This document shows, in pieces, positions 2,472-52,474 of a DNA stretch of 56,064 nucleotides. Numbering within the stretch: the stretch's first letter is position 1; each line of letters begins with the position of its first letter. Below the pieces are notes generated by a model. The model was given only the letters and a program-made list of their open reading frames with translations, searched no databases and was not told the origin of the DNA. The stretch is from positions 1 to 56,064 of the forward strand of contig CANRPB010000002.1 of the NCBI GenBank assembly GCA_947632415.1, in the 5' to 3' direction. This DNA is from an uncultured Bacilli bacterium (GTDB lineage: Bacteria > Bacillota_I > Bacilli_A > RF39 > UBA660). The translations under genes and the position numbers were made by a program.

Positions 2472-2941
2472 TTAATAGAATTTATGATTTTTATAAACAA
2501 AGATTATTGATAAGTTATTATCTAACCATGTATTATTTTGGGAAACCATATTGAAATATAAAGCCCCACGGTTTTCCAGGACGTCCAGCAGTTCAATTGC
2601 CTTTTGACTATTTTCTGTAATTTGAGCTTTTTGGAACTCCCCATTTTGGTAGGTTGTAAATTGACCTTTTTGCTCAATCACTTCTTTTACCGTGTTCGGG
2701 AAGTTTGGTGATTCAACCCGATTCAAAACTACTTGCATTACGAACGTCATACCCCAATACCCTCGTCACCTGCTTCTGCCAACGCCACGCGCTGTAGGAG
2801 GAGCTTTTCTTCCCCAGTAAGCGCGTAGGTTGAGGATTTCGGCACTCGTGTAGTTTGAGTAATTTCTTCAGCTTTTACATTTGTTTTAAAACACATGAAA
2901 CATACCATGAGTAATATTAACGTTTTGATTATTTTATTCAT
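2472..2941 (-). pseudogene. SleB-type (Hydrolase_2) secreted cell-wall hydrolase split by a 1-nt frameshift
   Basis: N part 2747..2941 has signal peptide MNKIIKTLILLMVCFMCFKTNVKA and LLLQRVALAEAGDEG. C part 2472..2750 has VVLNRVESPNFPNTVKEVIEQKGQF...GALYFN. The frames meet at the C4 run 2752..2755, and one extra base would fuse them. Confidence 0.6.
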
Positions 2942-14406: not shown

Positions 14407-17160
14407 CTATTTAAATGTTCTTGCCAACAGTGCACTGTTATATTTTGTTACCCTACTGATAAAAGTCTTTTTATTAAATTCAGCTGCACCATATTCTTTT
14501 ATAATTCTTATTACACGTTCATTCACAACTCTTGATTTACAACGATCATAAAAATTATCAAAAGAAGTAAATATACCATTGGCAATTCTTTCGGCAACAA
14601 TTTCCGTTGCAGCTTTTTCACCAACACCTTTTAATTCAGCCAAACCACGTTGCAAACACTCTTCCCCATCCACTTTTCTTATTTTCATTTTAATATCAGA
14701 ATAATTTATATGCGGCAAGAATACAACCAAGTTATCTTGTACAGCTAAACTACAAAACTTATCATAATCATCTTCGTTTGGTGCATATTTAATTTTACAG
14801 AACCAGAATTTTGTTGGGTGATACACTTTATAATAACACTCTTCAACACCAATCAATGAATAACCAACAGCGTGTCCTTTATTAAATGAATATACCAACA
14901 TAGTATCAAATACTTCCTGTGCTTGTTGTTTTGACAAACCATTCTTTAAAGCACCTTTTACAAATTTTTCATTCAATTCCTTTTTGTTCCGTTCAAATTC
15001 AGCTTTTGCATCTTCACTTTGTGATTGTCCACCAATCATCTTCATTACCTTATCAGCATCCCCCCATGTCATATTACCAATGTTTACACATATCTGTTGA
15101 ATTTGTTCCTGATATATAACAGCCCCATATGATTCCTGTGTATAATTATAATAAACACTTTGTTTTGCTTCTTCCAAATTAAATTTATTTTCTGCATATG
15201 TTTCAGGCATTTTCATTTTCAAAGGGCCTGGCCTATTCATTGCATTAGCAGCCACAATATCATCAAAGGAACTACAATTTATTTTTACCAAAATATCACG
15301 TACTGCTTTTTTATCAAACTGGAATATTCCAATGGTATCCCCATTTTCAAACCTGCTTAATATTTTATCATCTTTTACAATATCATCATAATTAACTTTA
15401 ACACCAGTCTCTTCCCTTAATTCACCAAGTTCTTCCATTGTATTAAGACCCAGCATATCAAATTTAATTACATGTATATTTTCCATATCGTTCAAATCGT
15501 AATTGGTATATATATCGCCCGACTTATCAATACGCAACGCCGTATAATCCAATATATCCCCACCAGTAACGGCAACACCTGCAGCGTGTGTACCAATGAA
15601 ACGCATTTTCTTATACAGCTTTGTAAAATGTGTCATGATATTATCATATTGTGAATTATACATCCTGGATTCACGGTTCTTTAACAATCCCTCTGCATTT
15701 AAATTTCCATCTTCATCAATATACTCATTACACAACGATTTTATTTTTGCAATTTCTTTTTTGTTATCCGCAACTTCACTCGGGTCAACTTCTTTATCCG
15801 TTGGCAAACCACAAACCTTTGACAAATCATTTATTAAATTATCAACTTTATACAAACCATAACTAGCAATCCTTGCCGTTTTCCCTTTATATTTATTTAT
15901 TACATACTCAATTACTTCATGCCTCCTTGATGTTTCAAAATCCATATCAATATCAGGCATTTTCTTTTTATCCTCACGCAAGAATCGTCTAAAATCCAAA
16001 CCAAACAACAGACTATCAACTTCCGTGATTCCTAACGCATATGCAATCAAACAGTTACAAGCAGAACCACGCCCAGGACCTACATTGATTCCCTGTTTCT
16101 TTGCCCAGTTTACATAGTCCGCAACGATCAAAAAATAATCATGGAAACCTAATGAATTAATTACTTTATATTCATCTTGTACACGAGATATATAATCAAG
16201 TCCTGTTTCTGGATGTTTATGTGTCCACTTCCCACGTTTTGACAATCCCTGTTTTATTTTCTTTTTTATCAATGCATCAGAATCATCACTGAACTTTGGA
16301 AGTAACTGTTGTAAATCTTTAAATATATCATCATCAACTTTATCTTCAATTTCTTTTAAGTTATTTATCATTTGTTTTCCAACACGTTCTACATTTACAA
16401 AATCATCACCATGCATTTTTACAAAACGATTATACAAGTCCTTATCTGACGGCATATAACGTTCCTTATACGTTGCGGCAATATGTTCAATGTCATGTTT
16501 GGATATTTCATGCATTTTCAAATATGTATCAAAATCTTCCTTCCTACCCCTGTGTGAATCGGAAGTCAATATGCATTTCACATTTAATTTTCTACCAATA
16601 TTTATTGCCATTACATTTACTTTTTGTTGCAAACCTAATTCAGATATTTTATATGGTTGTACCTCAATATAAAAATCATCTCCAAAAATATCAACCATCT
16701 TTTTTACAAATTTTTCCGCTTGTTTAATTTTATCATCTTTTAAACATTGTCCTAAATATCCAGCAATACAAGCTGATGTACATATAATTCCTTCATGGTA
16801 TTTTTCCAACATTTCAAATGTCCATATTGGATTATAATATTTTATCTTTTCCCCTTCATATTGTAATTCATTCAAGTTATGATAACCAACATGGTTCTTT
16901 GCAAACAAACATAAATGATAACCCCTGTTTTGTTCTTTATACACAGGTAGGAAATATCCTTCCACCCCAAGTACTGGTTTTATACCAACATCCTTACAAG
17001 CCATATAATGTTGTACCAGTCCATTTGTATTACCATGATTAGAAATGCCTAATGCCGTGTGTCCAAGTTCCTTTGCCAATTTAGCTAACTCTGTTGCTTT
17101 TCCAAAACCATCAAATGTAGAATATTCATCATGTCTATGTAAATCCATACCATCCTCCAT
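14407..17160 (-). CDS. dnaE: DNA polymerase III alpha-type (DnaE-like) replicative polymerase, 917 aa
   Basis: PHP domain DLHRHDEYSTFDGFG and SNHGN; core motifs GPGRGSACNCLIAYALGIT and MPDIDMDF. Confidence 0.9.
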   Translation of the reverse strand: MEDGMDLHRHDEYSTFDGFGKATELAKLAKELGHTALGISNHGNTNGLVQHYMACKDVGIKPVLGVEGYFLPVYKEQNRGYHLCLFAKNHVGYHNLNELQYEGEKIKYYNPIWTFEMLEKYHEGIICTSACIAGYLGQCLKDDKIKQAEKFVKKMVDIFGDDFYIEVQPYKISELGLQQKVNVMAINIGRKLNVKCILTSDSHRGRKEDFDTYLKMHEISKHDIEHIAATYKERYMPSDKDLYNRFVKMHGDDFVNVERVGKQMINNLKEIEDKVDDDIFKDLQQLLPKFSDDSDALIKKKIKQGLSKRGKWTHKHPETGLDYISRVQDEYKVINSLGFHDYFLIVADYVNWAKKQGINVGPGRGSACNCLIAYALGITEVDSLLFGLDFRRFLREDKKKMPDIDMDFETSRRHEVIEYVINKYKGKTARIASYGLYKVDNLINDLSKVCGLPTDKEVDPSEVADNKKEIAKIKSLCNEYIDEDGNLNAEGLLKNRESRMYNSQYDNIMTHFTKLYKKMRFIGTHAAGVAVTGGDILDYTALRIDKSGDIYTNYDLNDMENIHVIKFDMLGLNTMEELGELREETGVKVNYDDIVKDDKILSRFENGDTIGIFQFDKKAVRDILVKINCSSFDDIVAANAMNRPGPLKMKMPETYAENKFNLEEAKQSVYYNYTQESYGAVIYQEQIQQICVNIGNMTWGDADKVMKMIGGQSQSEDAKAEFERNKKELNEKFVKGALKNGLSKQQAQEVFDTMLVYSFNKGHAVGYSLIGVEECYYKVYHPTKFWFCKIKYAPNEDDYDKFCSLAVQDNLVVFLPHINYSDIKMKIRKVDGEECLQRGLAELKGVGEKAATEIVAERIANGIFTSFDNFYDRCKSRVVNERVIRIIKEYGAAEFNKKTFISRVTKYNSALLARTFK

Positions 17161-17216
17161 TTAACAAACAAAGGGCAGCTTTTCAACCGCCCTATTAAAT
17201 TTGTTTTCATAATCAT

Positions 17217-17245
17217 ATTATATCACATAAAAACAAATTTTGCAA
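17217..17245 (-). promoter_or_regulatory. Sigma-70-type promoter TTGCAA-N17-TGaTATAAT upstream of dnaE
   Basis: Minus strand reads TTGCAAaatttgtttttatgtgaTATAAT; a short GC hairpin plus T run lies between it and the dnaE start. Confidence 0.65.
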
Positions 17246-17247
17246 TA

Positions 17248-17949
17248 TTAAAATACATCTTTTACATCTTTTTTATAAACGTGCAACGAGAACATTGTAT
17301 GTGTAAAATTACCAACTTTCATGTTACATGCACCAGCAACATATTCAAGAAGTCTAATTGCCAAATATACATCATTTGTAAAGTGTGTGTTAAAATCACA
17401 ACTCCGCATTACATAATGCATATTTAATTTTCCTTCCCTATACTGGAAATTATACCCAAGTGAACAAGGTACTCTTGAAATACCACCAAGTCTATCAGGG
17501 TCAATTGCAGGATTCCAAATCGACAACCACAACTGCCTTGAATCATGGTCCTCACTTAACCTATTTACAATTTTACTTATCTGGTCGTTAAACCAAATTC
17601 TTTCGTTATATGTATATGCCATTTTACCATCATGCAAATACTCATTCCATACATCCTCACGAAGTTTATATGCTTCCCCAGGATTTATAAATTCCGTACC
17701 ATTTCTAAATGGGTCAAACATTCTTTCATCAAATTCTGCATCAGCCCATGGTTGTGTTACACCAGTTATATCACTTGACTTTGCATTCAAAATTGTATAA
17801 CAATAATTCTGAAGTTCCTTTGTTTCATAATCTTCATTTCCTTCAATCTTTTTATCCTGCATTGTTTTAGGTTTTACAAGTATACCCATTTCAGCAAGAT
17901 CCCTTTTTACCTCTTCATATGCTTCTTCCCAATTCATATAAATTCTCAT
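17248..17949 (-). CDS. ThyA-fold deoxypyrimidylate C5-(hydroxy)methylase, dCMP hydroxymethylase-like
   Basis: DSRQLWLSIWNP, VPCSLGYNFQYREGKLNMHYVMRSCDFNTHFTNDVY and SLHVYKKD parallel ThyA/T4 gp42 motifs. Asp lies 11 residues after the RS Arg, where ThyA has Asn177 and T4 gp42 has Asp179. Confidence 0.7.
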   Translation of the reverse strand: MRIYMNWEEAYEEVKRDLAEMGILVKPKTMQDKKIEGNEDYETKELQNYCYTILNAKSSDITGVTQPWADAEFDERMFDPFRNGTEFINPGEAYKLREDVWNEYLHDGKMAYTYNERIWFNDQISKIVNRLSEDHDSRQLWLSIWNPAIDPDRLGGISRVPCSLGYNFQYREGKLNMHYVMRSCDFNTHFTNDVYLAIRLLEYVAGACNMKVGNFTHTMFSLHVYKKDVKDVF

Positions 17950-17950
17950 T

Positions 17951-18631
17951 TTACTTTTCCTCCAGTTCAATATCATCAAACACAACAGGAATTCTATTTT
18001 TTAACTCTTTTAACAACGGTACTGTTACTTCCCTCATTTGTGGATGGGCTGTTTTTGCAACTCTTAATTTAAAGAAATTTCTCCATTCACGATAATTTGC
18101 TGTAATTGTAATTTCAGTCTTTGTACTGTTTGGTAATACAGAACGTGCAATTTGAGAGGTTGCTCCCAGCTCAATCATTTTTAAATAGTGACGTTCAGCA
18201 TCCATCATTGCCTCATTCCACTCTTTTAAAACATTTGCAATATCATAAGAACTCATAGTGGACATTTTACCATCTAACTTCATTCCATTTGTAACATCAA
18301 TCACTGAAATTTCATTACCAAATTTATCATTACTGTAATTACAATACCTTGTACTTTCCTGTGCAAAAGAAGCAATCCTATGTCTTACTAACTCATGTGA
18401 TACACCACGATCAACAATAAATTTAACCGTCAAAGAACTATGTTCAATCATTGCTTCATGTCCACGGTCAATTAACATTTTAACAAACCTTTTTGCACTT
18501 TCCCCATCCTCTGAAATTTTATCTTCGGATTTATAACAAACCCTACCAATTTTTTCAATGTGTTTTAATTCATCAATACCACCATCAGAAATGTTTGATA
18601 AAATTTCATAACCAGCTTTTAAAACTTTCAA
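17951..18631 (-). CDS. thyX: Flavin-dependent thymidylate synthase ThyX
   Basis: RHRIASFAQESTR = ThyX motif RHRxxSxxxxSxR; TTG start 10 nt after AGGAGG. Confidence 0.85.
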   Translation of the reverse strand: MKVLKAGYEILSNISDGGIDELKHIEKIGRVCYKSEDKISEDGESAKRFVKMLIDRGHEAMIEHSSLTVKFIVDRGVSHELVRHRIASFAQESTRYCNYSNDKFGNEISVIDVTNGMKLDGKMSTMSSYDIANVLKEWNEAMMDAERHYLKMIELGATSQIARSVLPNSTKTEITITANYREWRNFFKLRVAKTAHPQMREVTVPLLKELKNRIPVVFDDIELEEK

Positions 18632-18632
18632 T

Positions 18633-19391
18633 TTACCTTTTCCTCCTTTTTGGATTTTCAAAATGTTCCTTTATTGATAATGATTGTATATCAACAGGTT
18701 CATATTTGTCAATACCAAAATATAATCTTTGCATCGTTGCCAATGTCATAAAGGAACTTATTTCACATTTTGTTTTAAAATACCGTGTATAGTCTGCATT
18801 TAATTGTCTTATCCATTGGTGCTCATAATTAAGTTCTTTACGATCAACACCAAAATAATCAAAGAATCCATTTATAAATTTACCACCACAATAGCATTGA
18901 GCCATGAAGAAAATTACATTGCCAATTTCACAACAATCTGGAAGTTCATTCACAAACCGATTTAACATAACCAAATCTGCAGCCATACGCCTTTGTGTTT
19001 CCGTAACACGATAATAAACTTTCATACCAGTCCATGTATCATGTCTACGTTTTCTTGTTAATACAATAGAAATTAAACACGAACCATTATTTCTTTTTTT
19101 ATGTTTAAAATAAAATGTATAAGATAACCCTGATACCTTTTCTAATCCTTTATAGAAATTTTGTAATTCATCATAGTCAATATAAGTGTTTAACAAATGT
19201 CCCCATTTTGATTTCTTATAACCAAAATTAGCAAGGTCCAATGTACACTTTGGAGTTTTACAACCAATCACAACATTTTCTACATAACCAGAATCACCTA
19301 ATACTGTTTGGATTATTTCAGGATGTAATAAAAATTTACGATTTAATTCCAAAAACATTTCATCAAAGTCTTTATATTTTTCTACTAACAT
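18633..19391 (-). CDS. Diverged thymidylate-synthase-fold-like protein, paralog 1 (252 aa), function unknown
   Basis: About half its residues match neighbour 19385..20143 by eye. NNGSCLISIVL and YYRVTETQRRMAADLV align in order and spacing with the ThyA PCH strand and the RSxD...N segment. Confidence 0.5.
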   Translation of the reverse strand: MLVEKYKDFDEMFLELNRKFLLHPEIIQTVLGDSGYVENVVIGCKTPKCTLDLANFGYKKSKWGHLLNTYIDYDELQNFYKGLEKVSGLSYTFYFKHKKRNNGSCLISIVLTRKRRHDTWTGMKVYYRVTETQRRMAADLVMLNRFVNELPDCCEIGNVIFFMAQCYCGGKFINGFFDYFGVDRKELNYEHQWIRQLNADYTRYFKTKCEISSFMTLATMQRLYFGIDKYEPVDIQSLSIKEHFENPKRRKR

Positions 19392-20143
19392 TTCGTTTTC
19401 CTATCCTTGAAATACTCATCAATACTTAACGTATTTGCAGGTAAAGGTGGATATGTTTCCATACCCAACCTCATTCTCTGCATTCTAGCCATTGATTGAT
19501 ATGTTGTGATTCTTGCGCCATCAACAAAACTCCTATTATACGCATCTACCAATGATTTAATCCATGGGTGTGTATAATCCAATGTATCAAATGGAACTTT
19601 GAAATAATCATAGAATCCATTTATAACCATTGCAGAAGTATATGTTTGTGCCATGTAAAATGTTACACGTTCAATTTCACAACATTCAGGAAGTTCTTTT
19701 ATAAAACTATGAATCAGAACCAAATCAGCAGCCATTCTACGTTGTGTTTCTGTTGTCCTGTAAATTACATTACATCTAATCCATTTCTTTTTTCTATCTT
19801 TTCTGGATAACACAATTGCTATCAAACACGAACCATTGTTTATTTTCTTTTGTTTGAAATAATAAGTTAATGATAAACCTGAAGCAGTTTTTAACCGTTC
19901 CCTGAATTTAACAAGTTCATCATAGTCAATGTAATTTCTTAACAAATGACTCCACTTATTTTTCTTATACCCAAAATTACCCAAGTCCAAATTACAGTCA
20001 TATGTTTTACAAGCAATAAATATATTATCCATATAACCAAGAATACCATTTGTATAATCCAACATTTCATATGGATTAGTAAGTATTTCCTGATTAAGTT
20101 TTAAAAACATTTCGTCAAAATTTTTATATTTTCTTACTTTCAA
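19385..20143 (-). CDS. Diverged thymidylate-synthase-fold-like protein, paralog 2 (252 aa), function unknown
   Basis: Shares NFGYKK.KW.HLL..YIDYDEL, NNGSCLI.IVL, YR.TETQRRMAADLV, ELP.CCEI and F.MAQ.Y with paralog 1. Confidence 0.5.
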   Translation of the reverse strand: MKVRKYKNFDEMFLKLNQEILTNPYEMLDYTNGILGYMDNIFIACKTYDCNLDLGNFGYKKNKWSHLLRNYIDYDELVKFRERLKTASGLSLTYYFKQKKINNGSCLIAIVLSRKDRKKKWIRCNVIYRTTETQRRMAADLVLIHSFIKELPECCEIERVTFYMAQTYTSAMVINGFYDYFKVPFDTLDYTHPWIKSLVDAYNRSFVDGARITTYQSMARMQRMRLGMETYPPLPANTLSIDEYFKDRKTKC

Positions 20144-20769
20144 TAATTTGACCTCTGCCTAAATTTATTGACTTGGGATTTCTTTAAATAAACATCAACA
20201 ATTTCATTCTCTCTAAAACATGTGGAGAGTATTGCAAAATAATCAGCCCATACACATCTAAGTTTATGATAAAATTCATTTTTATCTGTAACCATATTTG
20301 TCTGTTTCCATGGTTTATTTTTTAAACAATTACACATCATTCCTAAATCCATAACCAAATCAGGAATCAAACAAAATACTTCCTTTGTTGTTCTTGATTG
20401 TTCATACAATGTGTGAATTAAACTATTATCCATTGGAACATCCCACACAACATCATCAGGACCCGAACCAGACAAAATAGTTAACTCCGTGAGGAAATGT
20501 AAACCATCAATCAATTCTTCCTTAAAATGGGCTTCGTCCTCATAAGCATCTAATGCTTCCCCAACTTCTTCCATGATTCTCCATGAAAAATCCTTTATCC
20601 TTGCCTGACCTCTTTTATCATCCAAATTAACAGGACAGTCTTCCGTTTGTAATAATCCACTTCTTTTTTCAATATCATGGTACTTTTCCATTAACTCTTT
20701 CTGACGATTAAATATTGCAATCAAACCATCACAATCAATTTCCTCTGATACAGCATGTGTTATATTCAT
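20140..20769 (-). CDS. All-alpha NTP pyrophosphohydrolase (dimeric dUTPase / MazG-like)
   Basis: IMEEVGEALDAYEDE and ELIDGLHFLTEL acidic helices typical of the dimeric dUTPase/dCTPase family. Confidence 0.55.
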   Translation of the reverse strand: MNITHAVSEEIDCDGLIAIFNRQKELMEKYHDIEKRSGLLQTEDCPVNLDDKRGQARIKDFSWRIMEEVGEALDAYEDEAHFKEELIDGLHFLTELTILSGSGPDDVVWDVPMDNSLIHTLYEQSRTTKEVFCLIPDLVMDLGMMCNCLKNKPWKQTNMVTDKNEFYHKLRCVWADYFAILSTCFRENEIVDVYLKKSQVNKFRQRSNY

Positions 20770-20771
20770 TA

Positions 20772-21317
20772 TCACGCTTCCTCCGTTCTATTTAATTTTG
20801 ATAATTTTACAATTTGTTCAGGATAATTTCCATCACTAACATTGTTATAATTATATTCACAAATCCTAAAACCATTATCGTTTAACCAGTATGCAAATAC
20901 ATTATATCCATCTATCAAACCTAAAACATTTTCTTTTACACCTTCCATTTGTTCCCTGTCCCCCCAATTTGTAACACAAAACAAACCAGGATAACAAAAA
21001 ACAAATAAATCAACCAGTGAAAGTAAACTCCTCCCTTCAAAACCATTCATAACATCTTCAAACAAATTTTTACCACGCAAAACAGTTCCACAAACACATT
21101 CCTCTATTAAAGGAAACCTATCAAATATGATATTCTGTTTAGAGTTTAAATTTGTTTCCATAAAATCAATGTACTCTTTTGCTGTTTTGTTTGCACCAAT
21201 ACTCTTTGCAATTTCAAACTGATTATAATATCTTTTTATATCATTACACAATGTAGTTTTACCTGAGTTATCACACCCAAAAACTACAATTTTTAAACCT
21301 CTTTCAAAATTTTCCAT
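20772..21317 (-). CDS. P-loop deoxynucleoside-monophosphate kinase (thymidylate-kinase-like)
   Basis: VVFGCDNSGKTTL Walker A, FDRFPLIEE; small kinase size; sits in the nucleotide-metabolism block. Confidence 0.6.
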   Translation of the reverse strand: MENFERGLKIVVFGCDNSGKTTLCNDIKRYYNQFEIAKSIGANKTAKEYIDFMETNLNSKQNIIFDRFPLIEECVCGTVLRGKNLFEDVMNGFEGRSLLSLVDLFVFCYPGLFCVTNWGDREQMEGVKENVLGLIDGYNVFAYWLNDNGFRICEYNYNNVSDGNYPEQIVKLSKLNRTEEA

Positions 21318-24519: not shown

Positions 24520-24563
24520 ATTAGTCCTCCTTTTTAATTAAAAAAATTTTTTTAAAACTACAA

Positions 24564-24635
24564 TGTGCATGACAGGGATCGAACCTGCACCTTTTAAACC
24601 ATTAAGGTATATGCTACCAATTACACCACATACAC
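24564..24635 (-). tRNA. tRNA-like gene with canonical acceptor, D and T arms but a non-canonical anticodon arm (possible pseudo-tRNA)
   Basis: Minus strand reads GTGTATG TG GTGT AATTGGTA GCAT A T ACCTT AATGGTTTAA AAGGT GCAGG TTCGATC CCTGT CATGCAC A. No 5-bp stem with a 7-nt loop can be drawn. Confidence 0.5.
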
Positions 24636-24694
24636 ACCTTACTATGACAAAAACGAAAGAAAGGATATGTACCCATGCTCGGCAAACATGGGAG

Positions 24695-24765
24695 TGGGGG
24701 TAGTTGGAATTGAACCAACGATACAGGAGTCAAAGTCCCGTGCCTTACCTCTTGGCGATACCCCT
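24695..24765 (-). tRNA. tRNA-Gln (anticodon UUG)
   Basis: AGGGGTA TC GCCAAGAGGTAAGGC A CGGGA CTTTGAC TCCTG TATC GTTGG TTCAATT CCAAC TACCCCC A. Close to E. coli tRNA-Gln; A1-C72 mismatch; no encoded CCA. Confidence 0.85.
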
Positions 24766-25124: not shown

Positions 25125-25448
25125 TTACAGGGCTATGTTACAATACCCTGAGCATAATAAATAATCAGCAGTGTTGATTATATCCAATCCATAGGAATCA
25201 ATAAAGCTACACATGAACTCTTCCCATTCTAATGGAACAATAATACCATAAGAAAATATCCAAGCATGAACAAGTTCATGGATTAACACTTTACGTTTGA
25301 GATCACCAACAAGTTTATCATACAGAAATATGGACATAACATTTAAGTCTGTTACACCAAGGGTTAAGGAACCATCACTCCTGCTGAGGTCTTTTTTATT
25401 ATGCGTATAGATTATTTTCCATTCATAACCATTTACATTAACAGTCAT
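25125..25448 (-). CDS. Minimal HExxH metallopeptidase (ImmA/IrrE- or SprT-like)
   Basis: VLIHELVHAW in a 107-aa protein. Confidence 0.55.
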   Translation of the reverse strand: MTVNVNGYEWKIIYTHNKKDLSRSDGSLTLGVTDLNVMSIFLYDKLVGDLKRKVLIHELVHAWIFSYGIIVPLEWEEFMCSFIDSYGLDIINTADYLLCSGYCNIAL

Positions 25449-25492
25449 AATAAGTAAGGGAGCGGATTATTCCACTCCCCATACCTCCTATC

Positions 25493-26185
25493 TTACATAT
25501 TCACTAATTTGTTAAGCTTTGCTTTCCAAGCCTGCTTTTCCGTGGGTGACATATCAGATATAACATTCCTTGCCATATCCTCTAAGTCTTCCATAAATTC
25601 ATCAAGCTCTTCCATACGTTTTCTATTTCCTTCAGGTTCATCCTTTTTATAGTTACGTCTATTATTCATGTATTTATCATAAGAGTAACCATAACGAGAA
25701 TTGCTATTGGAACTCGAGTTGCTTCTTGAACCAGAACTCCTACCACTATTGGAACTATATGGAGCATACATACGTCCTTCATTCAAATCCATATCACGCA
25801 TATCCTCACTCATATGCATGTAAGGTTCATTCATCATGATAGGGGATTCATAATATCTTTTGGAAGTATACCTTCCACGACTATCCCTACGTTGTCCACG
25901 ATAATATCTTTTTTCCATAGGACCATCTTCATCATAGTCTTCCCCATATTCTGATTCTTCCATTGCTTCCATAATCTGCTTATAATAACAAGCTTTAATT
26001 ATTTTTTCTTTTCCTTCACAAACATCTTTCCACATGTCAATCACTTCACCCATTTCCTCTGTATCAACATGTTCTGTACCATTTGCAAATTCAGATTTAA
26101 TAACCTCTTGTAATTTTTCACAGATTTCTTTTGCAAACTTTGTTTCCTCTTCCAGTTTCATTTTAACAACACTCTCTTCGTGCAT
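25493..26185 (-). CDS. Low-complexity protein: acidic helical N-domain, Arg/Ser/Tyr/Asn-rich centre, helical C-domain (230 aa)
   Basis: YYRGQRRDSRGRYTSKRYY...SSNSGRSSGSRSNSSSNSNSRYGYSYDKYMNNRRNY; GGAGG 8 nt before the ATG. Confidence 0.6.
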   Translation of the reverse strand: MHEESVVKMKLEEETKFAKEICEKLQEVIKSEFANGTEHVDTEEMGEVIDMWKDVCEGKEKIIKACYYKQIMEAMEESEYGEDYDEDGPMEKRYYRGQRRDSRGRYTSKRYYESPIMMNEPYMHMSEDMRDMDLNEGRMYAPYSSNSGRSSGSRSNSSSNSNSRYGYSYDKYMNNRRNYKKDEPEGNRKRMEELDEFMEDLEDMARNVISDMSPTEKQAWKAKLNKLVNM

Positions 26186-26198
26186 ATTTAACACCTCC

Positions 26199-26618
26199 TT
26201 ATGCTGTTCTTACAACTGTTAAGTTTGCATTTTGAACCAATACACTTTGTGTGGAAGTGTTTTCCAATGCAACCGTTACACAACATCCCTTAGGTACTTT
26301 AATATATGCCTGTGAGGAAACATTGAAATATTCACCCACAGCTGCAGGAGTTGCAATACCAGTTGTAGATTGTAATGATTCACCATCAATAGAAAGTGCT
26401 AAAGAAATAGGACCAGTACCACCTTCGGGCAAAGCAATATTTGCACTATAATCTACAAGAAATGTTGCAAAGCATTGGTTGCCTGTGTTTCTTAATGTTA
26501 TAATACCACTACCTTCCCTGTGCAGTATGGAACAATTACCACATACAGGAGTATCTGTAAATAAAACATTTTGATTTTGTAAAACTGTTTGAACCGCATT
26601 AGCAACAAATTCAGCCAT
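26199..26618 (-). CDS. BclA C-terminal domain / ExsF-like (TNF/C1q-like jelly-roll) protein (candidate)
   Basis: 139 aa; ISLALSIDGESLQST...VALENTSTQSVLVQNANLTVVRTA resembles the stand-alone exosporium BclA-CTD/BxpB pattern as I recall it. Confidence 0.45.
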   Translation of the reverse strand: MAEFVANAVQTVLQNQNVLFTDTPVCGNCSILHREGSGIITLRNTGNQCFATFLVDYSANIALPEGGTGPISLALSIDGESLQSTTGIATPAAVGEYFNVSSQAYIKVPKGCCVTVALENTSTQSVLVQNANLTVVRTA

Positions 26619-26838
26619 TGTTAAATCCCTCCCCTAACATACCAAACATTTTAGCTCTCCATTCTTTATTATCCAAATCGGACTTTCTTTTTGCTTCATC
26701 TAATTTTTCCTGATTCTCTTTCATTTCAATTCTGTTAAGCAGATAAACCAAAAAGTTAACTTCTTCCAATGTAGGGTTTTCTTTTTGCATAATAGATTCA
26801 GCAAACTCTTCAAATTTCTTTTCAATCTTCTCTTTCAT
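26611..26838 (-). CDS. Hypothetical coiled-coil protein (75 aa from MKEKIEKK)
   Basis: GAAAGGAG RBS; no motif. Confidence 0.5.
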   Translation of the reverse strand: MKEKIEKKFEEFAESIMQKENPTLEEVNFLVYLLNRIEMKENQEKLDEAKRKSDLDNKEWRAKMFGMLGEGFNNG

Positions 26839-26926
26839 ATTAGCTCCTTTCATAAAACAAGGACAAACCAATTATAAAAATCAGCCTGCCCTTGTAACGA
26901 GTAAAACTGTTTATTAAACAGACAAC

Positions 26927-27121
26927 CTAATCTTTATTAGATAAATACCCCAATATTTTCTTATTCTGTTCTATAATTGTTTCCAGATATTCTTTGTTTT
27001 GTTTTTGCAATTCCTGCATTATTTCATTATTGGTTGAATCACTTGAAGCCCAAGCTAAGGTTAAAATCTGTAAAACAAATTCTGTTATCTGTAACCAATT
27101 ACAGAAATTTTGGTCATTCAT
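26927..27121 (-). CDS. Small protein with a hydrophobic segment then coiled coil (64 aa)
   Basis: WLQITEFVLQILTLAWA; start shares nucleotide 27121 with the upstream stop. Confidence 0.5.
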   Translation of the reverse strand: MNDQNFCNWLQITEFVLQILTLAWASSDSTNNEIMQELQKQNKEYLETIIEQNKKILGYLSNKD

Positions 27122-28014
27122 CAGAATTGATAACCATTACCATTGCAACCACAACCGCAACAACCATTGTTATAGTTTGCAAGAACCTGATTAGACCAGT
27201 TACCAAGGCCACACGGCGAAGGACCAGGATAACAAGGTACAGACCTCGGGTTAATCATGTTGTCAACCTGGTTCACAATATACTGAGCCGTTTTTTCATC
27301 ACCACATGCGGACAATCTAGAACGAAGGTCAGCAATTGTTTCATCCTTTGCATCAATCTTACTTTGTACAAGGAAGTCATACAGCATTCTGGTATTTGCA
27401 TTATTGTTGTCAATAATATCTCTTACCTGATTCTGCATATTGTTATTGATTGCACAAGTATCAGCAACCATCTGATTCTGAATAGCTAACTGACCAGCTT
27501 GTGTTTTGCAGCAACAATCATTCACTGCAGCTTGCAATGCATTTGCATTCTGTAATGCCGTAATATTCTGTGCATTAGCAGTTTGCAGATTAGAAATGTT
27601 CATTGCATTTAAGGACTGCTGAATTGCATTTGTGTTCGCATTACCCTGAGCGGCAACTTCCGCAAATCCCTGACAAAGAATATTCTGAATACCAGAGAAT
27701 CCATTCAGAAGACTTGTGTTCATTGCATAGAATCCATCACACAGACCTTGCTGTACACCACGAACAGCACCTTCAAGGTCATTGAAGTTCATATCCATGC
27801 AAAGGTCCCCACGAGTAAGAGCAGCACTGGTTGCACCGTTTCCACCTTGGTTTCCACCCCAGCCACCATTACCCCAGCCAAAGATGAGAGCGAAAAGGAT
27901 TATAACAATCCACCAGCCACCGTCCATCCCCCAGCCATTACCATTTCCAGAATTACCATTACCAGAAACAGGAGCTACAGCCAAGGAGTACGGAATGTTA
28001 CATGAGTTAAACAT
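27121..28014 (-). CDS. Gly/Asn/Gln/Cys-rich single-pass membrane protein (297 aa), unknown family
   Basis: GNGNSGNGNGWG, TM GGWWIVIILFALIFGWGNGGWGG, Q/N repeats NAQNITALQNANALQ, CCC, C-terminal NNGCCGCGCNGNGYQF; 29/60 G+C at 27781..27840. Confidence 0.7.
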   Translation of the reverse strand: MFNSCNIPYSLAVAPVSGNGNSGNGNGWGMDGGWWIVIILFALIFGWGNGGWGGNQGGNGATSAALTRGDLCMDMNFNDLEGAVRGVQQGLCDGFYAMNTSLLNGFSGIQNILCQGFAEVAAQGNANTNAIQQSLNAMNISNLQTANAQNITALQNANALQAAVNDCCCKTQAGQLAIQNQMVADTCAINNNMQNQVRDIIDNNNANTRMLYDFLVQSKIDAKDETIADLRSRLSACGDEKTAQYIVNQVDNMINPRSVPCYPGPSPCGLGNWSNQVLANYNNGCCGCGCNGNGYQF

Positions 28015-28088
28015 ATTGGTTTCCTCCTTTATTTATTTTACACAAAGAGGATAAATATTTTTATGTGCGCACAATCCTCTATTATGTA

Positions 28089-28319
28089 CTACATAAATCC
28101 AAAATGTCTTTTTATATCATTACTAACTTGTTCTACCGTTGTTCCTTTTTCTTTGCTAATATTTTCAGCCATTTGTTGTAAACCTTGTACATCACCATTT
28201 CTATACATATTCAAAACATTTTGTGCCAATGGATTGTTAGCTATTTTGGGATTTCTCATAAACTGGTCAATCATAGCAGGTGGATTAAACATTGCTTGTA
28301 ATAATTGCATAGGATTCAT
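28089..28319 (-). CDS. Hypothetical protein (76 aa)
   Basis: MNPMQLLQAMFNPPAMIDQF...; no motif. Confidence 0.5.
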   Translation of the reverse strand: MNPMQLLQAMFNPPAMIDQFMRNPKIANNPLAQNVLNMYRNGDVQGLQQMAENISKEKGTTVEQVSNDIKRHFGFM

Positions 28320-28321
28320 TA

Positions 28322-28813
28322 TTACTCACCTTCCTTTTTATTTCTATTGTTAGACGGTTTATTAAATCCAGAAATTGTTGTACTAAGTTCTTCCAATTTA
28401 GAAGTTATATCATCAAAACGTTTTGTAAACATTTCAGAAATTTCATTCTTTATTTTATCTTCAACAGACATCGGTTTTTCATCTTCCGAAGGTTTATATA
28501 TAACTGTTTTTATTGTTCCTTCTTTGTTCCATGATTTTACATATATTTCAGTTAAATCATTTCTTGGGAATAATGCAACCCCACCATTCATAGGTATTTC
28601 ATTCGGAACAATATTTTCAGCACTTGGAACAAACCTACCACTTATTTCTTGTACAGCTGGTTGTACTACTGGTTGCTGTACACTTGCATAATTATATTGT
28701 GGTTGAACTGGCTGCTGATAAGTTTGCATTGCAGTTTGTACAGGAAATTGTACAGGATTCATAGTTTGTGGATTTTGATAAGGCATTACATAGTTGTTTC
28801 CATAGCCTGGCAT
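28322..28813 (-). CDS. Protein with Gln/Pro/Tyr-rich N-terminal low-complexity region (163 aa)
   Basis: PYQNPQTMNPVQFPVQTAMQTYQQPVQPQYNYASVQQPVVQPAVQ followed by a folded-looking C-domain. Confidence 0.55.
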   Translation of the reverse strand: MPGYGNNYVMPYQNPQTMNPVQFPVQTAMQTYQQPVQPQYNYASVQQPVVQPAVQEISGRFVPSAENIVPNEIPMNGGVALFPRNDLTEIYVKSWNKEGTIKTVIYKPSEDEKPMSVEDKIKNEISEMFTKRFDDITSKLEELSTTISGFNKPSNNRNKKEGE

Positions 28814-28992
28814 TTTTGTTTCCTCCTTTTAATAATTTTATTTAATATATTTTCCTTTGTTGTACTATGTGATACTTCCTCTAATGTTAATTTGTTTACA
28901 CGTAAAATGGAATCTTTTAATTCATTCCAATTCTCTAAAGGAATTTTATCCAAAGCATCAACAAAAGTGTCCATAACAATAATGCTATACAT
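28786..28992 (-). CDS. Hypothetical protein (68 aa from MYSIIVMD)
   Basis: TTGGAGG RBS; no motif. Confidence 0.5.
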   Translation of the reverse strand: MYSIIVMDTFVDALDKIPLENWNELKDSILRVNKLTLEEVSHSTTKENILNKIIKRRKQKCQAMETTM

Positions 28993-29122
28993 TCGTTTAA
29001 CCTCCAATTCATTTTATATTTTTATTATACATGATATAATTGGGAATAAATCTAAGAAAAGTTTAATAGAAAACTAAAGAAAATATACTGAAAAATTACT
29101 CAAAAAAATAGAGCCACCACAA

Positions 29123-29353
29123 TCACAGTAATGACTCTATCTTCTTTAATATTCGTTTGTGCATTTTTGAAATACCTGCCCTGGAATAACCAAGTGTATC
29201 GGCTATATAATCAAAATCTTTTCGTTCTACATAATACATTGTCATGAATTGTTTTTCTTTATCATCCAGCATTGACTCTTCTAACAACTCATTAAATGTA
29301 GATTTTTTATTTATACTTTGTACTTTATGTTTTATCTCCATGTGTTTGGACAC
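29123..29353 (-). CDS. Sigma-70 region-4-type HTH regulator (about 76 aa, GTG start)
   Basis: DKEKQFMTMYYVERKDFDYIADTLGYSRAGISKMHKRILKKIE = region 4.2-like HTH; GGGAGG 8-9 nt before the GTG. Confidence 0.6.
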   Translation of the reverse strand: MSKHMEIKHKVQSINKKSTFNELLEESMLDDKEKQFMTMYYVERKDFDYIADTLGYSRAGISKMHKRILKKIESLL

Positions 29354-29472
29354 TACATAAACCTCCCACATGTAGGACACCTATTAGGATTTCCTCTTTT
29401 CTTTCCGCTGGACTTTCTTTTTGTTTTTGTTTTAACAGAAGTTATTTTCACAATAGTTTGTTTAGCAGGCAT
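29353..29472 (-). CDS. Basic micro-ORF (39 aa), coupled to the regulator gene
   Basis: Hand translation MPAKQTIVKITSVKTKTKRKSSGKKRGNPNRCPTCGRFM; GGAGG RBS; its TAG overlaps the downstream GTG by 1 nt. Confidence 0.3.
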   Translation of the reverse strand: MPAKQTIVKITSVKTKTKRKSSGKKRGNPNRCPTCGRFM

Positions 29473-29484
29473 ACACTACCTCCA

Positions 29485-29778
29485 TTATTCATTATGTGTT
29501 GCATTATCGTTATATTGATTTCCTTCAACATTATTTATATCAGATTCTTCCCCAGAAACTTCTTGTGTTACAGTTTCAGTTGTAACTACATTAGCCATAT
29601 CAAACTGCGATTCATAAACAAAGAAACCAATAACCAAAGTCATTACCAATAAAGTACAACAAATAATATTTATGATTAAAACTTTTAATAAACTTTTATT
29701 ATTTTCTTTTTGATTTTTGGACAATTCAAGTAAAACCCTGTTTGCTAACTCCAAATCCTTTTCATTATCGTAATCCAT
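29485..29778 (-). CDS. Single-pass membrane protein (97 aa)
   Basis: TM LKVLIINIICCTLLVMTLVIGFFVY; downstream of promoter 29809..29837. Confidence 0.55.
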   Translation of the reverse strand: MDYDNEKDLELANRVLLELSKNQKENNKSLLKVLIINIICCTLLVMTLVIGFFVYESQFDMANVVTTETVTQEVSGEESDINNVEGNQYNDNATHNE

Positions 29779-29808: not shown

Positions 29809-29837
29809 ATCATAACATATAACATTTTAATTGTCAA
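29809..29837 (-). promoter_or_regulatory. Sigma-70-type promoter TTGACA-N17-TGtTATGAT
   Basis: Minus strand reads TTGACAattaaaatgttatatgtTATGAT. Confidence 0.6.
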
Positions 29838-30126
29838 CACTTTTTTTACCTTGTAAAATACTAAGTTCTTTAAACACTGTTTTCATCTCCGTTTGCAATT
29901 TTGTTATTGCCTTTGAATGTTCATCAATAATGGAGTCCACTTCATGATTTCTTTCATTCATTGTTTTTTTAATTTCTTCAATTCCATTTACACATTGGTC
30001 TAATTTAGCAATTTGTATTCCATCTTGTTTTGCTTTTGTCACTTGTGCTGACACAAATGTTGATACACCAATTACACAACCAATAACACCAACAACACAA
30101 GTTATAATGGATATTGGACTAATCAT
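29827..30126 (-). CDS. Membrane-anchored coiled-coil protein (99 aa; XhlA/holin-accessory-like position)
   Basis: N-terminal TM ISPISIITCVVGVIGCVIGVSTFV then a coiled coil; AAGGAGG RBS. Confidence 0.5.
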   Translation of the reverse strand: MISPISIITCVVGVIGCVIGVSTFVSAQVTKAKQDGIQIAKLDQCVNGIEEIKKTMNERNHEVDSIIDEHSKAITKLQTEMKTVFKELSILQGKKSVDN

Positions 30127-30139
30127 TTTATCACCTCCT

Positions 30140-31600
30140 TTAATTTGATTTATATGGTACATATACTTCTATTACATCACCAGGTTTTCCGTCCTGATTA
30201 GCAACTCCATTAACTAAATAATTATTTGATTTTGATATTTTTGAAACTAATGGAATAAACCCAATATTTCCACCATTTACTTTAAACTCGTACAAATTCA
30301 CATAATTTACACTTACCCCTGATTTTTTTTGCAACATGAAAATTCCATAAAATTCACCAAACTTTATAATATACGCATCTTGAATTAACATACTTTCACT
30401 TATATCTACATATTCAAGAGTTATACAAGACGTTTCAGAATTTGATACAACTTCAACCTTAAGATCATAACGCATACTTTTCTTTACAATTACCAAAAAG
30501 TAATTCCCTAGATTTATAAATTTCTCTACTTCTTCATTACCAGAAAGGAAATGGTTAGTCATTGATAATGTTGTCAAATTCCCATCAAAATTTATTTTTT
30601 TATATTCCCCATTTGCATAAAAAAATACCTCATCTTCCCCATTATAAAACAAGGGATTGTTAATACTTCCAGAATAACTATACATCGTTATTTGTTTACT
30701 TCTAGTAAAAATATACTCATTTCCACTTTTTTCTACAAAATCCAAGAAACAATGAATTTCAGCATCTTTAACAACAGAATCAAAAGAGAATAAAGGATAA
30801 TAATAATAAAATGAAGCAAAAGAAGATTTTTTAAAATTATAACTCCCAAATATCTCATCTATATCCCTCCCAAAACTTGAATCCGTATATACCTTTTCGT
30901 TAGAATCATTTTTTGCAAACTTTATTGTAACTTTATTTTCTAATTTATTCACATAAACTATAACGAGTAAATGATAATTTTTGTTTGATGAATCATCCCC
31001 TTCAGAATAAAAAAGATCAAATATTACATCCCCACCATTAAATAAATAAAAATTCTTCGAAAACTTTTTATAACTTAAGCTTTTGCCATCACATTCTATC
31101 GTATAAGAAACATCACTTTCATCCACATTTTGATTATAAATACCACCCCTAACTACATTATAAGATTCCACTTTATTTACTTCAACCATTTCCATTGTAA
31201 GCCCAAATTTACCTTTAAATTTACCACTAGTATATGATAATGGAACTTGATATTGATATATAAAATAAAATTTACTTTTATCAGAAAGTTGTAAAACTTT
31301 AATTATATTTTCATCCCATCTTTTTTTTAAAATTTCAACTTTATCAATAACATTATATAAAATAACATCTGTTCCATCACTATTCCCATAGCAAACTAAA
31401 CAACAACAATCATCAACCATAGCTGAATAAAAATTAGTACACTCTAAATTACTTTCAATAATTAAATTATCCTTATACTCAGGATTTATCTTTACAAAAT
31501 CCCCATTTACAATATTTTCACCAGCCGCTACTTCATAATTTTCCAAAACACCATTCAAAGCAACACCACTATATAAATGTGTATTTGTTCTACCTCTCAT
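30140..31600 (-). CDS. Tail fibre / receptor-binding protein candidate (486 aa)
   Basis: Last large ORF of the tail block; very AT-rich; no motif recognised. Confidence 0.4.
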   Translation of the reverse strand: MRGRTNTHLYSGVALNGVLENYEVAAGENIVNGDFVKINPEYKDNLIIESNLECTNFYSAMVDDCCCLVCYGNSDGTDVILYNVIDKVEILKKRWDENIIKVLQLSDKSKFYFIYQYQVPLSYTSGKFKGKFGLTMEMVEVNKVESYNVVRGGIYNQNVDESDVSYTIECDGKSLSYKKFSKNFYLFNGGDVIFDLFYSEGDDSSNKNYHLLVIVYVNKLENKVTIKFAKNDSNEKVYTDSSFGRDIDEIFGSYNFKKSSFASFYYYYPLFSFDSVVKDAEIHCFLDFVEKSGNEYIFTRSKQITMYSYSGSINNPLFYNGEDEVFFYANGEYKKINFDGNLTTLSMTNHFLSGNEEVEKFINLGNYFLVIVKKSMRYDLKVEVVSNSETSCITLEYVDISESMLIQDAYIIKFGEFYGIFMLQKKSGVSVNYVNLYEFKVNGGNIGFIPLVSKISKSNNYLVNGVANQDGKPGDVIEVYVPYKSN

Positions 31601-46539: not shown

Positions 46540-47391
46540 TTAAAAATTATTAACCACTGTAACTTTACCATTGTTATTTCTAGCCCAATATTTTTTACTC
46601 CTGCTATCCAAGTGTACAAAAGTATTATATTGAATGATACCATTGATACCAAGTTGTTGTGCATATTTTGCTACTTGTGTTGGGGTCTTACCTTTTACCA
46701 CAATATCAAATGCCTGCCCTTTTACATGATAACTATTTTTTGCACCACCAACTTTTACATTATATGCAGATGTACGATATGCAGAATTTATTGTTACTGG
46801 ACTATTAAAATAATCTCTTATTTGTTGTAACTTCATTTGAACAAAAGCAGAGTCAATCAAAATTTTATCAGAACCATCCTTACATCTAAATTCCTTTATT
46901 TTAAAATTTTGACTTAAACTTTTTTCACCATCAGTTTTTAATGAATAAGTTTGTACACCCATTTTAACACCCTCTACTTTTTTCAAAAACAAATCGTGTT
47001 CATCTTGTCTTCTTTTTGTTAAACCAGATAAAACCTTACCACCTGCTTTATTGTACTGTAACATTTTTTCAGCAATCACATCTTTTGTTCTTGTACCATT
47101 TGCAGTTAATTGATTGATACTACCAATATTATAACAAAAAGAAACCAATGCATCAAATTCATTTTGACTCCAAATATACTTGGAACTAAACTTACTAACC
47201 TTTTGTTCATAAACCTTTAAATCATTTTTTAAAAATTCATCTGCTTGTGCTTGTGTTATTAAATCACCTTGTTTTACACCAGATGTATGTCCATATCCAA
47301 TTGTCCAAACACCAGCAGGACATTTGTATGCTTGTAATTTACAACCTTCATACTTCTTAATTAAATCAATACCAGTTTGACTTGTTCTCAT
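46540..47391 (-). CDS. Two-domain endolysin: GH24 muramidase + Peptidase_M15 (YcbK/VanY-like)
   Basis: YEGCKLQAYKCPAGVWTIGYGH = E-x8-(D/C)-x5-T triad; SYHVKGQAFD...FVHLDSR = M15 H-x6-D...H zinc site. Confidence 0.85.
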   Translation of the reverse strand: MRTSQTGIDLIKKYEGCKLQAYKCPAGVWTIGYGHTSGVKQGDLITQAQADEFLKNDLKVYEQKVSKFSSKYIWSQNEFDALVSFCYNIGSINQLTANGTRTKDVIAEKMLQYNKAGGKVLSGLTKRRQDEHDLFLKKVEGVKMGVQTYSLKTDGEKSLSQNFKIKEFRCKDGSDKILIDSAFVQMKLQQIRDYFNSPVTINSAYRTSAYNVKVGGAKNSYHVKGQAFDIVVKGKTPTQVAKYAQQLGINGIIQYNTFVHLDSRSKKYWARNNNGKVTVVNNF

Positions 47392-52465: not shown

Positions 52466-52474
52466 TTTTACCAC

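Follow-up and report, generated by a model that had tools for sequence, protein, structure and literature searches.

What is a set of eleven small, co-oriented open reading frames (ORFs) doing between the tail genes and the tRNAs of a phage genome? The question arises from contig CANRPB010000002.1, whose 56,064-nucleotide stretch analysed here (the window) holds such an island, and which an initial annotation, made from the sequence alone, had read as a phage-borne module that remodels the host spore or cell surface or else builds a virion-associated or extracellular matrix. By comparing the island with 87 independent loci, we found that its central genes keep their order and sequence, and the island is thus more than a chance assembly of genes. 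The interpretation we prefer, and hold tentatively, is that the island is the variant B copy of a portable, self-regulated cargo operon of Clostridia phages, the products of which would form a membrane-anchored assembly that acts on the envelope of vegetative cells.

A conserved gene cassette in the island

Each of the eleven ORFs of the initial annotation was recovered, on the minus strand and at the coordinates below. They are tightly packed, with stop and start codons overlapping or adjacent at o73/o163, o163/o76, o297/o64 and o86/o139. Together with the gene that precedes them and a hairpin near their end, they are, in the order of transcription:

o97, 29485..29778, minus strand: single-pass membrane protein of 97 aa, encoded by the first gene of the regulator unit
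o39, 29353..29472, minus strand: basic 39-aa micro-ORF with a CPTCG motif; doubtful gene
o85, 29123..29380, minus strand: sigma-70 region-4 helix-turn-helix mini-protein
o73, 28786..29007, minus strand: 73-aa ORF
o163, 28322..28813, minus strand: core protein
o76, 28089..28319, minus strand: small Asn/Gln/Met-rich helical protein, marker of cassette variant B
o297, 27121..28014, minus strand: core single-pass membrane protein
o64, 26927..27121, minus strand: 64-aa ORF in a variable slot, its start codon overlapping the stop of o297 (TGATGA)
o86, 26611..26871, minus strand: charged helical ORF, likely start ATG 26838, stop overlapping the o139 start
o139, 26199..26618, minus strand: core jelly-roll protein, a standalone domain
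o233, 25493..26194, minus strand: core protein, likely start ATG 26185
Terminator-like hairpin, 25457..25480, minus strand: between o233 and o107; 10 pairs, 6 of them G-C, in the scan
o107, 25125..25448, minus strand: minimal HExxH protein, putative metallopeptidase

Loci for comparison were gathered with tblastn against GenBank phages (50,697 records) and with a scan of 185,579 species-representative genomes. The former gave 21 records with o297 and 16 with o139, two sets that consist largely of the same uncultured gut phages and include the Butyrivibrio phage Ceridwen. The latter gave 183 stretches with an o139 relative, from which 80 loci were taken. Synteny was then counted by iterative searches over 87 loci of gut and rumen Clostridia phages and prophages (labelled L002, L014, L095 and so on where a single locus has to be named). 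Homologues of o163, o297, o139 and o233 were present in 69, 83, 87 and 84 of the 87 loci, respectively, and in constant order: the o163 homologue is upstream of o297 wherever it occurs, and the o233 homologue lies directly downstream of o139 in all 84 loci that carry it. The genes that flank the island in the window (a tail protein, the holin-like protein, o183 and o180) had matches in 0-1 of 83 loci. The conserved order supports the initial annotation in treating the ORFs as one functional module, and it shows that seven genes (o85, o163, o76, o297, o139, o233 and o107), as far as such comparison can tell, have been inherited and moved as one block. The distribution survey that the initial annotation had proposed found this cassette to be widespread in gut and rumen Clostridia phages.

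One locus, L095, is a true relative of the window phage, with tail genes 27-49% identical. Its block runs in the order holin-like gene, o97, o85, cassette, o107, is syntenic with that of the window at 31-62% identity, and is accompanied by an inverted replication arm. The core families are also large: clustering at 90% identity gave at least 5918 clusters for o297, 1654 for o139 and 457 for o233, none with a Pfam domain, and no member of the o297 and o233 clusters has been named.

The initial annotation had seen no phage-typical signatures in the island. This was not borne out, as o139, o297, o163, o107 and o85 all match phage-only PHROG families, most of them without an assigned function. When the island proteins were scanned with Pfam, NCBIfam and PADLOC, Sigma70_r4 alone scored above its cut-off.

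The remaining ORFs are less constant. The basic micro-ORF o39 does have the predicted character (pI 11.6) and has no homologue in L095 or L096, with one phmmer match in the 87 loci. No locus has a homologue of o73, the slot of which is taken by an unrelated 62-aa ORF in L095, and o73 may be a lineage-specific filler or not a gene. Homologues of o64 were found in L002 and L023 only, at 38-60% identity; it had been described as a coupled hydrophobic protein, and its hydrophobicity is weak. For o86, homologues at 43-49% identity occupy the same place in L058, L077 and L080, making this another variable slot. Taken together, o39, o73, o64 and o86 would be variable fillers or not genes. The preceding gene, o97, has no PHROG match; its product contains a strong hydrophobic segment (Kyte-Doolittle value 2.73), and L095 has a 42% identical counterpart in the same place.

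Two cassette variants and their putative peptidases

The loci fall into two variants. In variant A, found in 50 loci, a protein of about 127 aa lies beside o163 and has a conserved Cys (in VGDCTVRA), His (in GHVV) and Asp (in YDTWDSG), an order typical of papain-like peptidases or transglutaminases, to judge by the sequence. This protein is not present in the window; members of its family include:

L014, 5568-5945: Cys-His-Asp protein
L093, 4968-5363: Cys-His-Asp protein
L094, 3995-4384: Cys-His-Asp protein

The window represents variant B, which has o76 and the HExxH protein o107. A homologue of o76 is found in 21 loci, 18 of which also have o107. The Cys-His-Asp protein occurs alone in 49 loci and the HExxH protein alone in 24, with both in 1 locus and neither in 13, so that the two, which are unrelated to each other, exclude one another almost completely (Fisher p = 4e-11). 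The exchange of one putative peptidase for another suggests that the cassette may need a proteolytic (or cross-linking) step.

The minimal HExxH peptidase of the initial annotation is recognisable in o107 as H57-E-L-V-H61, and the motif HE(L/I)(T/V)HA is kept in 25/25 family members. The protein matches phrog_1233 (E = 3e-14) and, more weakly, phrog_13742, named 'peptidase' (E = 5e-4); it has no Pfam or NCBIfam match, and its homologue in L014 gives a weak match to DUF4344 (E = 0.012). L014 is the one locus with both proteins, and its o107 homologue (2599-2916) lies outside the cassette, between the large terminase and portal genes. Relatives of the Cys-His-Asp protein also occur in Tsamsa-like Bacillus phages (as 'putative peptidase'), in Geobacillus phage GBK2 and in Prevotella Lak megaphages, there in early or accessory regions from which the rest of the cassette is absent.

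A putative regulator gene and the predicted terminator/promoter junction after it

The region-4 helix-turn-helix protein of the initial annotation proved to be sound: o85 passes the Pfam Sigma70_r4 cut-off (25.5 vs 24.1 bits; E = 9.7e-6), matches phrog_36, 'transcriptional regulator' (E = 6.8e-12), and is 62% identical to its L095 counterpart. No sigma region 2 was found in the 85-aa protein, and NCBIfam sigma models match it through the C-terminal ~60 model positions alone, far below their cut-offs. Matches to late-activator families were likewise below cut-off (DUF1492, E = 8e-4; ArpU, E = 0.006; RinA, E = 0.01). The proposed link between the module and this regulator also holds, as 42 of the 66 loci that extend far enough have an o85-family gene <=1.2 kb upstream of their o163 homologue.

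The signals found around o85 in the window are:

Promoter-like site, 29809..29837, minus strand: TTGACA-17-TATGAT with TG, 11/12 matches in the consensus scan; precedes o97-o39-o85
Intrinsic terminator after o85 (29146-29102), followed by a T-run and TGAGTAATT, 29094..29146, minus strand: from the terminator scan
TGTATAAT, 29031-29024, minus strand: further candidate -10 element, read from the sequence some 17 nt before the o73 start codon

The second of these arrangements recurs in other loci, where the o85-family gene is followed by a G+C-rich hairpin, a T-run and the conserved element (A)TGCGAAAAT(A/T)T. The arrangement of hairpin, T-run and TGnnAAAAT was found in 20 of 41 distinct loci vs 1% of random windows, and the TGAGTAATT of the window is the positional counterpart of the conserved -10-like TGCGAAAAT. 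No -35 match accompanies TGTATAAT, which is also absent from the consensus-scan list. We infer that the conserved element would be a housekeeping-type extended -10 promoter whose -35 region is occupied by the terminator, and that a region-4-only protein could act at such a -10 element next to a terminator.

In these respects o85 resembles the RinA/ArpU/DUF1492 late-gene activators of Firmicute phages, which are likewise small proteins with a sigma-region-4-type helix-turn-helix, and here too the gene is followed by the terminator and promoter of the operon that it is presumed to switch on. Unlike theirs, which lie directly in front of the small terminase gene, the o85 gene is not found before the terminase genes and travels with the cassette, not with the packaging module: it comes after the tail and holin-like genes in the window and after the portal and MuF genes in L014.

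The jelly roll of o139

The product of o139, which matches phrog_20016 (E = 1e-55), had been described as a jelly-roll protein like the BclA C-terminus or ExsF. The fold is well supported. The AlphaFold2 (AF2) model is confident and all-beta (predicted local distance difference test score, pLDDT, 82.8; predicted template modelling score, pTM, 0.77), and its best Foldseek matches are the F-BclA C-terminal domain (9h38, E = 8e-7), ExsFA (7r1m, E = 2e-6) and BclA (1wck), the matches of this group, 2z5w and 3tyj included, giving E = 8e-7 to 4e-5 and template modelling (TM) scores of 0.6-0.72. Further matches include TNF ligands, C1q and phage fibre knobs (8ke9, 9eul). In a comparison with predicted viral structures, other standalone proteins of ~135-142 aa from uncultured gut phages matched best, and fibritin-like and collagen/C1q proteins also appeared. 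An invariant CC pair marks the family.

Membership in the BclA/ExsF family, the other part of the claim, was not supported. Pfam BclA_C gave no match to o139 at E <= 1, and neither a single-sequence nor a profile search against PDB sequences retrieved anything significant, BclA and ExsF included. Collagen-like GXX repeats are absent from the 139-aa protein, and no proline-rich exosporium-targeting motif could be recognised by eye in its N-terminus, MAEFVANAVQTV. An exhaustive profile search retrieved 898 representative clusters, and the best 150 representatives are, without exception, stalkless standalone proteins 83-196 aa long; as the domain spans the whole of each of these best 150 of 898, a BclA-type architecture was rejected.

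As such, o139 shares with the BclA C-terminal domain, F-BclA and ExsFA/BxpB of the Bacillus cereus group exosporium the TNF/C1q jelly roll and a similar domain size, and with ExsFA also the standalone domain. It differs from them in being carried by phages and in having no sequence similarity, collagen stalk or exosporium-targeting N-terminus, and the combination that marks ExsFA/BxpB (a standalone TNF-like domain, an exosporium-forming host and sequence homology) was not found here. The same fold is found in viral fibre knobs (PRD1 P5, the short tail fibre of cyanophage A-1(L), the phi812 spike knob), and like these o139 is probably trimeric. The knobs, however, are C-terminal domains of long fibres and vary with host range, whereas o139 is a separate, conserved protein. 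It is 47-72% identical across phages with unrelated backbones, which argues against a receptor-binding tip, and a role as receptor binder therefore seems unlikely from the sequences.

The predicted membrane protein o297 and the core proteins o163 and o233

The description of o297 as a Gly/Asn/Gln/Cys-rich membrane protein held. Asn, Gln and Gly together make up 34.7% of its residues, the highest value among the 88 window proteins (median 15.4%), and it has 15 Cys and one hydrophobic segment. It is the single island protein that we read as membrane-spanning, with a maximum 19-residue hydropathy of 1.65 at the WW-IILF segment; o107 reaches 1.47 and was not read in this way. The protein matches phrog_16490 (E = 8e-30). 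After an uncharged Gly/Asn-rich N-tail come a hydrophobic helix (WW-IILF...GWG) and a pair of long predicted helices, then an invariant CCC and a C-tail that is Cys-rich and variable. Because the N-tail is short and without positive charges, the N-terminus would lie outside and the C-terminus inside. The best match in the PDB sequence searches with o139 and o297, coronavirus spike HR1 (E = 0.63), was not significant and was set aside as reflecting N/Q-rich heptads alone. With Rz-type i-spanins, which pair with a lipoprotein o-spanin in two-membrane hosts, o297 has in common an N-terminal membrane helix and a coiled coil with Cys, but there is no lipobox in the cassette ORFs and the hosts are single-membrane Clostridia, and we did not assign it to that class.

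A Gln/Pro/Tyr-rich and an Arg/Ser/Tyr-rich protein had also been described. The bias is there in o163 and o233, and it is regional rather than protein-wide. In o163 (phrog_21718, E = 8e-8), a Gln/Pro-rich N-tail precedes a conserved, beta-rich domain of ~60 residues (WVxGExxAKxYxV...YLKSxD) and a C-terminal helix; in o233, acidic helical N- and C-terminal domains surround an Arg/Ser/Gly/Tyr-rich low-complexity centre. No signal-peptide-like N-terminus was seen when the sequences of the cassette proteins were read by eye, and apart from the putative peptidase the cassette has no enzyme-like product.

Genomic contexts

The cassette comes after the holin and endolysin genes and abuts an integrase or host genes in Ceridwen, in Dulem virus 33 and in the Vescimonas fastidiosa MM35 prophage, and in Dulem virus 39 it comes after the integrase. 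The Ceridwen cassette proteins fall in the QHJ73766-73771 region. Counted over all loci, the 4 kb upstream of the cassette contain about 16 lysin-type domains and the 4.5 kb downstream contain 11 integrases. Phages of 140-157 kb with a PolC-type polymerase and NrdD have the cassette at the end of the structural (late) arm. In all, the insertion points between backbone genes fall into at least four contexts, and with positions as varied as after lysis genes, at the late-arm end and between head genes, the cassette is therefore cargo and not backbone: its distribution indicates movement between phage backbones together with stable inheritance within a lineage.

The closest parallel is the morons, or lysogenic-conversion cargo, of temperate Firmicute phages, which share the variable position, the terminator and promoter signals of their own and the location at prophage edges. 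Known morons usually supply a secreted or membrane protein or a pair of these, or else an enzyme system, unlike the present cassette of seven genes with mostly cytoplasmic, non-enzymatic products, which is also found in virulent phages.

On a 58.9-kb NCBI contig (L096, 144-4997), a variant B cassette lies directly downstream of a TraG/VirD4-like type IV coupling-protein gene, which hints that the cassette may also ride on elements other than ordinary phages.

Hosts

The predicted hosts are mostly Clostridia, and two are cultured: Butyrivibrio fibrisolvens DSM 3071, the host of Ceridwen, and V. fastidiosa MM35, which carries the prophage. Assignments to Akkermansia, Alistipes, Methanobrevibacter and similar hosts, all from metagenome bins, were discounted as misbinned phage contigs. 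Among the 50,697 GenBank phage records, no phage of Bacillus, Clostridium or Clostridioides had o139 or o297. B. fibrisolvens is not known to form spores; the Ceridwen paper does not mention spores and contains no virion proteomics. The type species of Vescimonas is reported as non-spore-forming, in agreement with genome predictions (PMC11334427).

The SleB-type cortex hydrolase that the initial annotation had seen in the genome is present as a Hydrolase_2 ORF at 2472-2750 (minus strand) in the early region; it encodes 92 aa, the SleB/CwlJ-type catalytic domain alone. This is a common phage lysin domain, listed in the literature as a likely repurposed endolysin (PMC10294663). Ceridwen has a 191-aa version beside its antirepressor gene.

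A proposed envelope-acting assembly and its alternatives

In the mechanism that we propose, o85 would be made from the upstream promoter and activate a -10-only promoter located after its own terminator, and the coupled operon would yield a fixed set of proteins. Among these, o297 would insert into the membrane so that the short Gly/Asn tail, which is uncharged, faces outwards and the long helical part with the Cys residues stays in the cytoplasm, where it would recruit trimers of the TNF-like o139 and the low-complexity linkers o163 and o233. A dedicated peptidase, o107 here and the Cys-His-Asp protein in variant A, would trim one or more components. The outcome would be a protein assembly on the inner membrane face of vegetative cells, whether infected or lysogenic, with the host envelope as its target; exclusion of other phages, or control of lysis or of envelope integrity, would be its most plausible effect, and it would neither form part of the virion nor act on spores. 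We picture a self-contained assembly and not a part that docks onto virions because unrelated phages carry the cassette, and because it has a putative peptidase as its only enzyme, one anchor, a trimeric building block, linkers, translational coupling and its own activator.

Several points weigh against this proposal. The assembly, its topology, its timing and its phenotype are all predictions from the genes; the AF2 model of o297 has a pLDDT of 40, a low confidence at which it informs on secondary structure only, and the promoter and terminator calls are pattern matches. Exclusion or defence proteins rarely have a low-complexity, Cys-rich composition, and no PADLOC family matched any of ten proteins at E <= 0.1. 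In all cases the cassette is co-oriented with, and next to, virion or lysis genes, and in L014 it lies between the gene for the MuF-type (minor) head protein and those for the scaffold and major head proteins. Its conservation in L095 is about equal to that of the tail genes, and both points fit a virion role equally well. Because structural genes are such constant neighbours, we have kept alive the view that the cassette is a virion accessory module, be it a decoration of the head or neck, a fibre with o139 as its trimeric knob, or a set of ejected proteins with o297 as pilot. The missing signal peptides would agree with this, as would the TNF/C1q-type knobs that end many phage fibres and that were among the matches of o139. 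On balance we consider it unlikely: the same cassette is found in phages with unrelated heads and tails (temperate phages of 40 kb, others of 56 kb and of 140-157 kb), each of which would have to offer a docking site that fits; in temperate phages its place is beyond the holin and endolysin at the prophage edge; it has a regulator and a terminator/promoter junction of its own; and o139 is far too conserved for a receptor-binding tip.

The spore-surface role put forward by the initial annotation, in which the mother cell would produce the proteins and these would form coat- or exosporium-like material on the forespore, now appears improbable. GerE, GerQ/Tgl, CotG, CotY/ExsY/CdeC and YabG belong to the morphogenetic sets of spore coat and exosporium in Bacillus and Clostridioides, and such sets have a similar mix, including a TNF-like protein and a maturation peptidase: by analogy, the Gln-rich tail would correspond to GerQ, the Arg/Ser/Tyr-rich protein to CotG, the Cys-rich protein to CotY/ExsY/CdeC, the small helix-turn-helix regulator to GerE and the peptidase to YabG. 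The fold that o139 shares with ExsFA and the BclA C-terminal domain, the lack of signal peptides, as in coat proteins, and the Clostridia among the predicted hosts point the same way. The likeness is nevertheless one of composition and logic only, with no homology detected, and the role is unlikely because hosts, phage distribution and promoter type do not fit. The initial annotation had itself named homologues occurring mainly in phages of non-sporulating hosts as evidence that would count against it, and the data come close to this, with one host genus reported as non-spore-forming through its type species and the other host, B. fibrisolvens, not known to sporulate; phages of Bacillus, Clostridium and Clostridioides had no homologue, and virulent-looking phages carry the cassette too. 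The conserved promoter element resembles a housekeeping extended -10 promoter and not a sporulation type, o139 has none of the BclA_C match, collagen stalk or targeting motif, and the SleB-type hydrolase is an ordinary phage gene. A further reading, an autonomous morphogenetic module that builds a coat- or exosporium-like protein layer in non-sporulating Clostridia, seems to us quite unlikely as well, if slightly less so. Such a layer would combine TNF-like trimers in a lattice with Gln-, Arg/Ser/Tyr- and Cys-rich linkers, a membrane anchor, a maturation peptidase and its own transcription factor, and it might encase the contents of the infected cell or progeny virions; if so, bacterial viruses would have an equivalent of viral occlusion bodies, or a 'coat' that moves horizontally.

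Two further explanations have little to recommend them over the envelope-acting assembly. After lysis, a lectin-like TNF/C1q trimer could bind debris, mucus or cells, or the proteins could form a matrix in which virions are embedded, and the features that agree with this are the location of the genes for these cytoplasmic proteins, next to lysis genes where the late arm ends, a fold that often binds glycans or receptors, the great abundance of the family in gut metagenomes and the conserved Cys that could cross-link. A released lectin, however, needs neither a membrane anchor nor a dedicated transcription factor, and the reducing gut lumen argues against cross-linking by disulfides, which leaves this with a low probability. 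Strict anti-phage defence or abortive infection, with o297 as a protease-activated membrane effector that kills the cell on superinfection, is in our estimation just as doubtful. Defence systems cluster at prophage edges, where the cassette is also found as cargo, and a membrane protein is here combined with peptidases of mutually exclusive types. Against this stand the absence of PADLOC matches for the ten proteins, the four conserved, structural-looking, non-enzymatic proteins and the presence of the cassette in large virulent phages.

A literature search gave no account of a phage BclA-like or spore-coat module, and no described system matches the cassette, whose families exist only as PHROGs without an assigned function. 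In gut metagenomes, few unnamed phage families are as abundant as those of its core proteins, and its members travel as a regulated unit between unrelated phages without a characterised homologue. Knowing the role of the cassette would explain thousands of 'hypothetical' genes in phages of Lachnospiraceae and Oscillospiraceae and could reveal a new way in which phages alter their hosts, and two cultured systems, Ceridwen and the V. fastidiosa MM35 prophage, make it accessible to experiment.

Other features of the window

All genes of the window are on the minus strand, and long ORFs span about 92% of the sequence. In the order of transcription, packaging and head genes are followed by tape-measure and tail genes, the holin-like gene, the island, the tRNAs and a replication block (primase, DNA polymerase, RecA, ThyX, exonuclease, RuvC-like resolvase and RNase H). 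The landmarks are:

Large terminase, 48424-49770, minus strand: with the portal, MuF-type head protein and major head protein, in the packaging and head genes
Tape-measure and tail genes, 38.7-30.1 kb, minus strand
Holin-like gene, 29827-30162, minus strand: just before the island in the order of transcription
Two tandem perfect sigma-70 consensus promoters, 25094-25066 and 25000-24972, minus strand: TTGACA-17-TATAAT, 12/12 in the consensus scan
tRNA-Gln and tRNA-Leu, 24563-24765: after the island

The tandem promoters come directly after the island and before the tRNA pair and the replication genes. They probably start the early genes of the phage, which would therefore place the island at the boundary between the late and early arms. 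As no integrase was found among the scanned window ORFs, the phage looks virulent. No flanking repeats of the kind that end mobile elements were found around the island, and Rfam matches in the window were limited to the two tRNAs.

A two-domain lysin (Phage_lysozyme and Peptidase_M15_3; 46540-47391, minus strand) is encoded between the large terminase and portal genes, ~16 kb from the holin-like genes, an unusual location for an endolysin. A reading of the cassette as a lysis module was rejected, given that the lysin of the window is here and that relatives have canonical lysins upstream. The packaging genes also include, on the upstream side of the large terminase and well away from the tail module, a 754-aa ORF (50210-52474, minus strand) that matches a PHROG 'tail protein' family (E = 8e-64).

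A nucleotide-metabolism cluster (17248-20775, minus strand) contains ThyX, an overlapping partial thymidylate-synthase-like ORF, dUTPase_2 and two paralogous 252-aa proteins (phrog_34294), and L095 has TAGT, radical SAM/SPASM and thymidylate-synthase-like genes at 15071-18366; the nucleotide genes of the two phages may serve hypermodification of DNA bases. Lastly, the segment 5001-6000 has 41.5% G+C in a genome of ~31%, and within it lies a 236-aa ORF (5262-5972) with no Pfam or PHROG match, which long ORFs on the opposite strand overlap.

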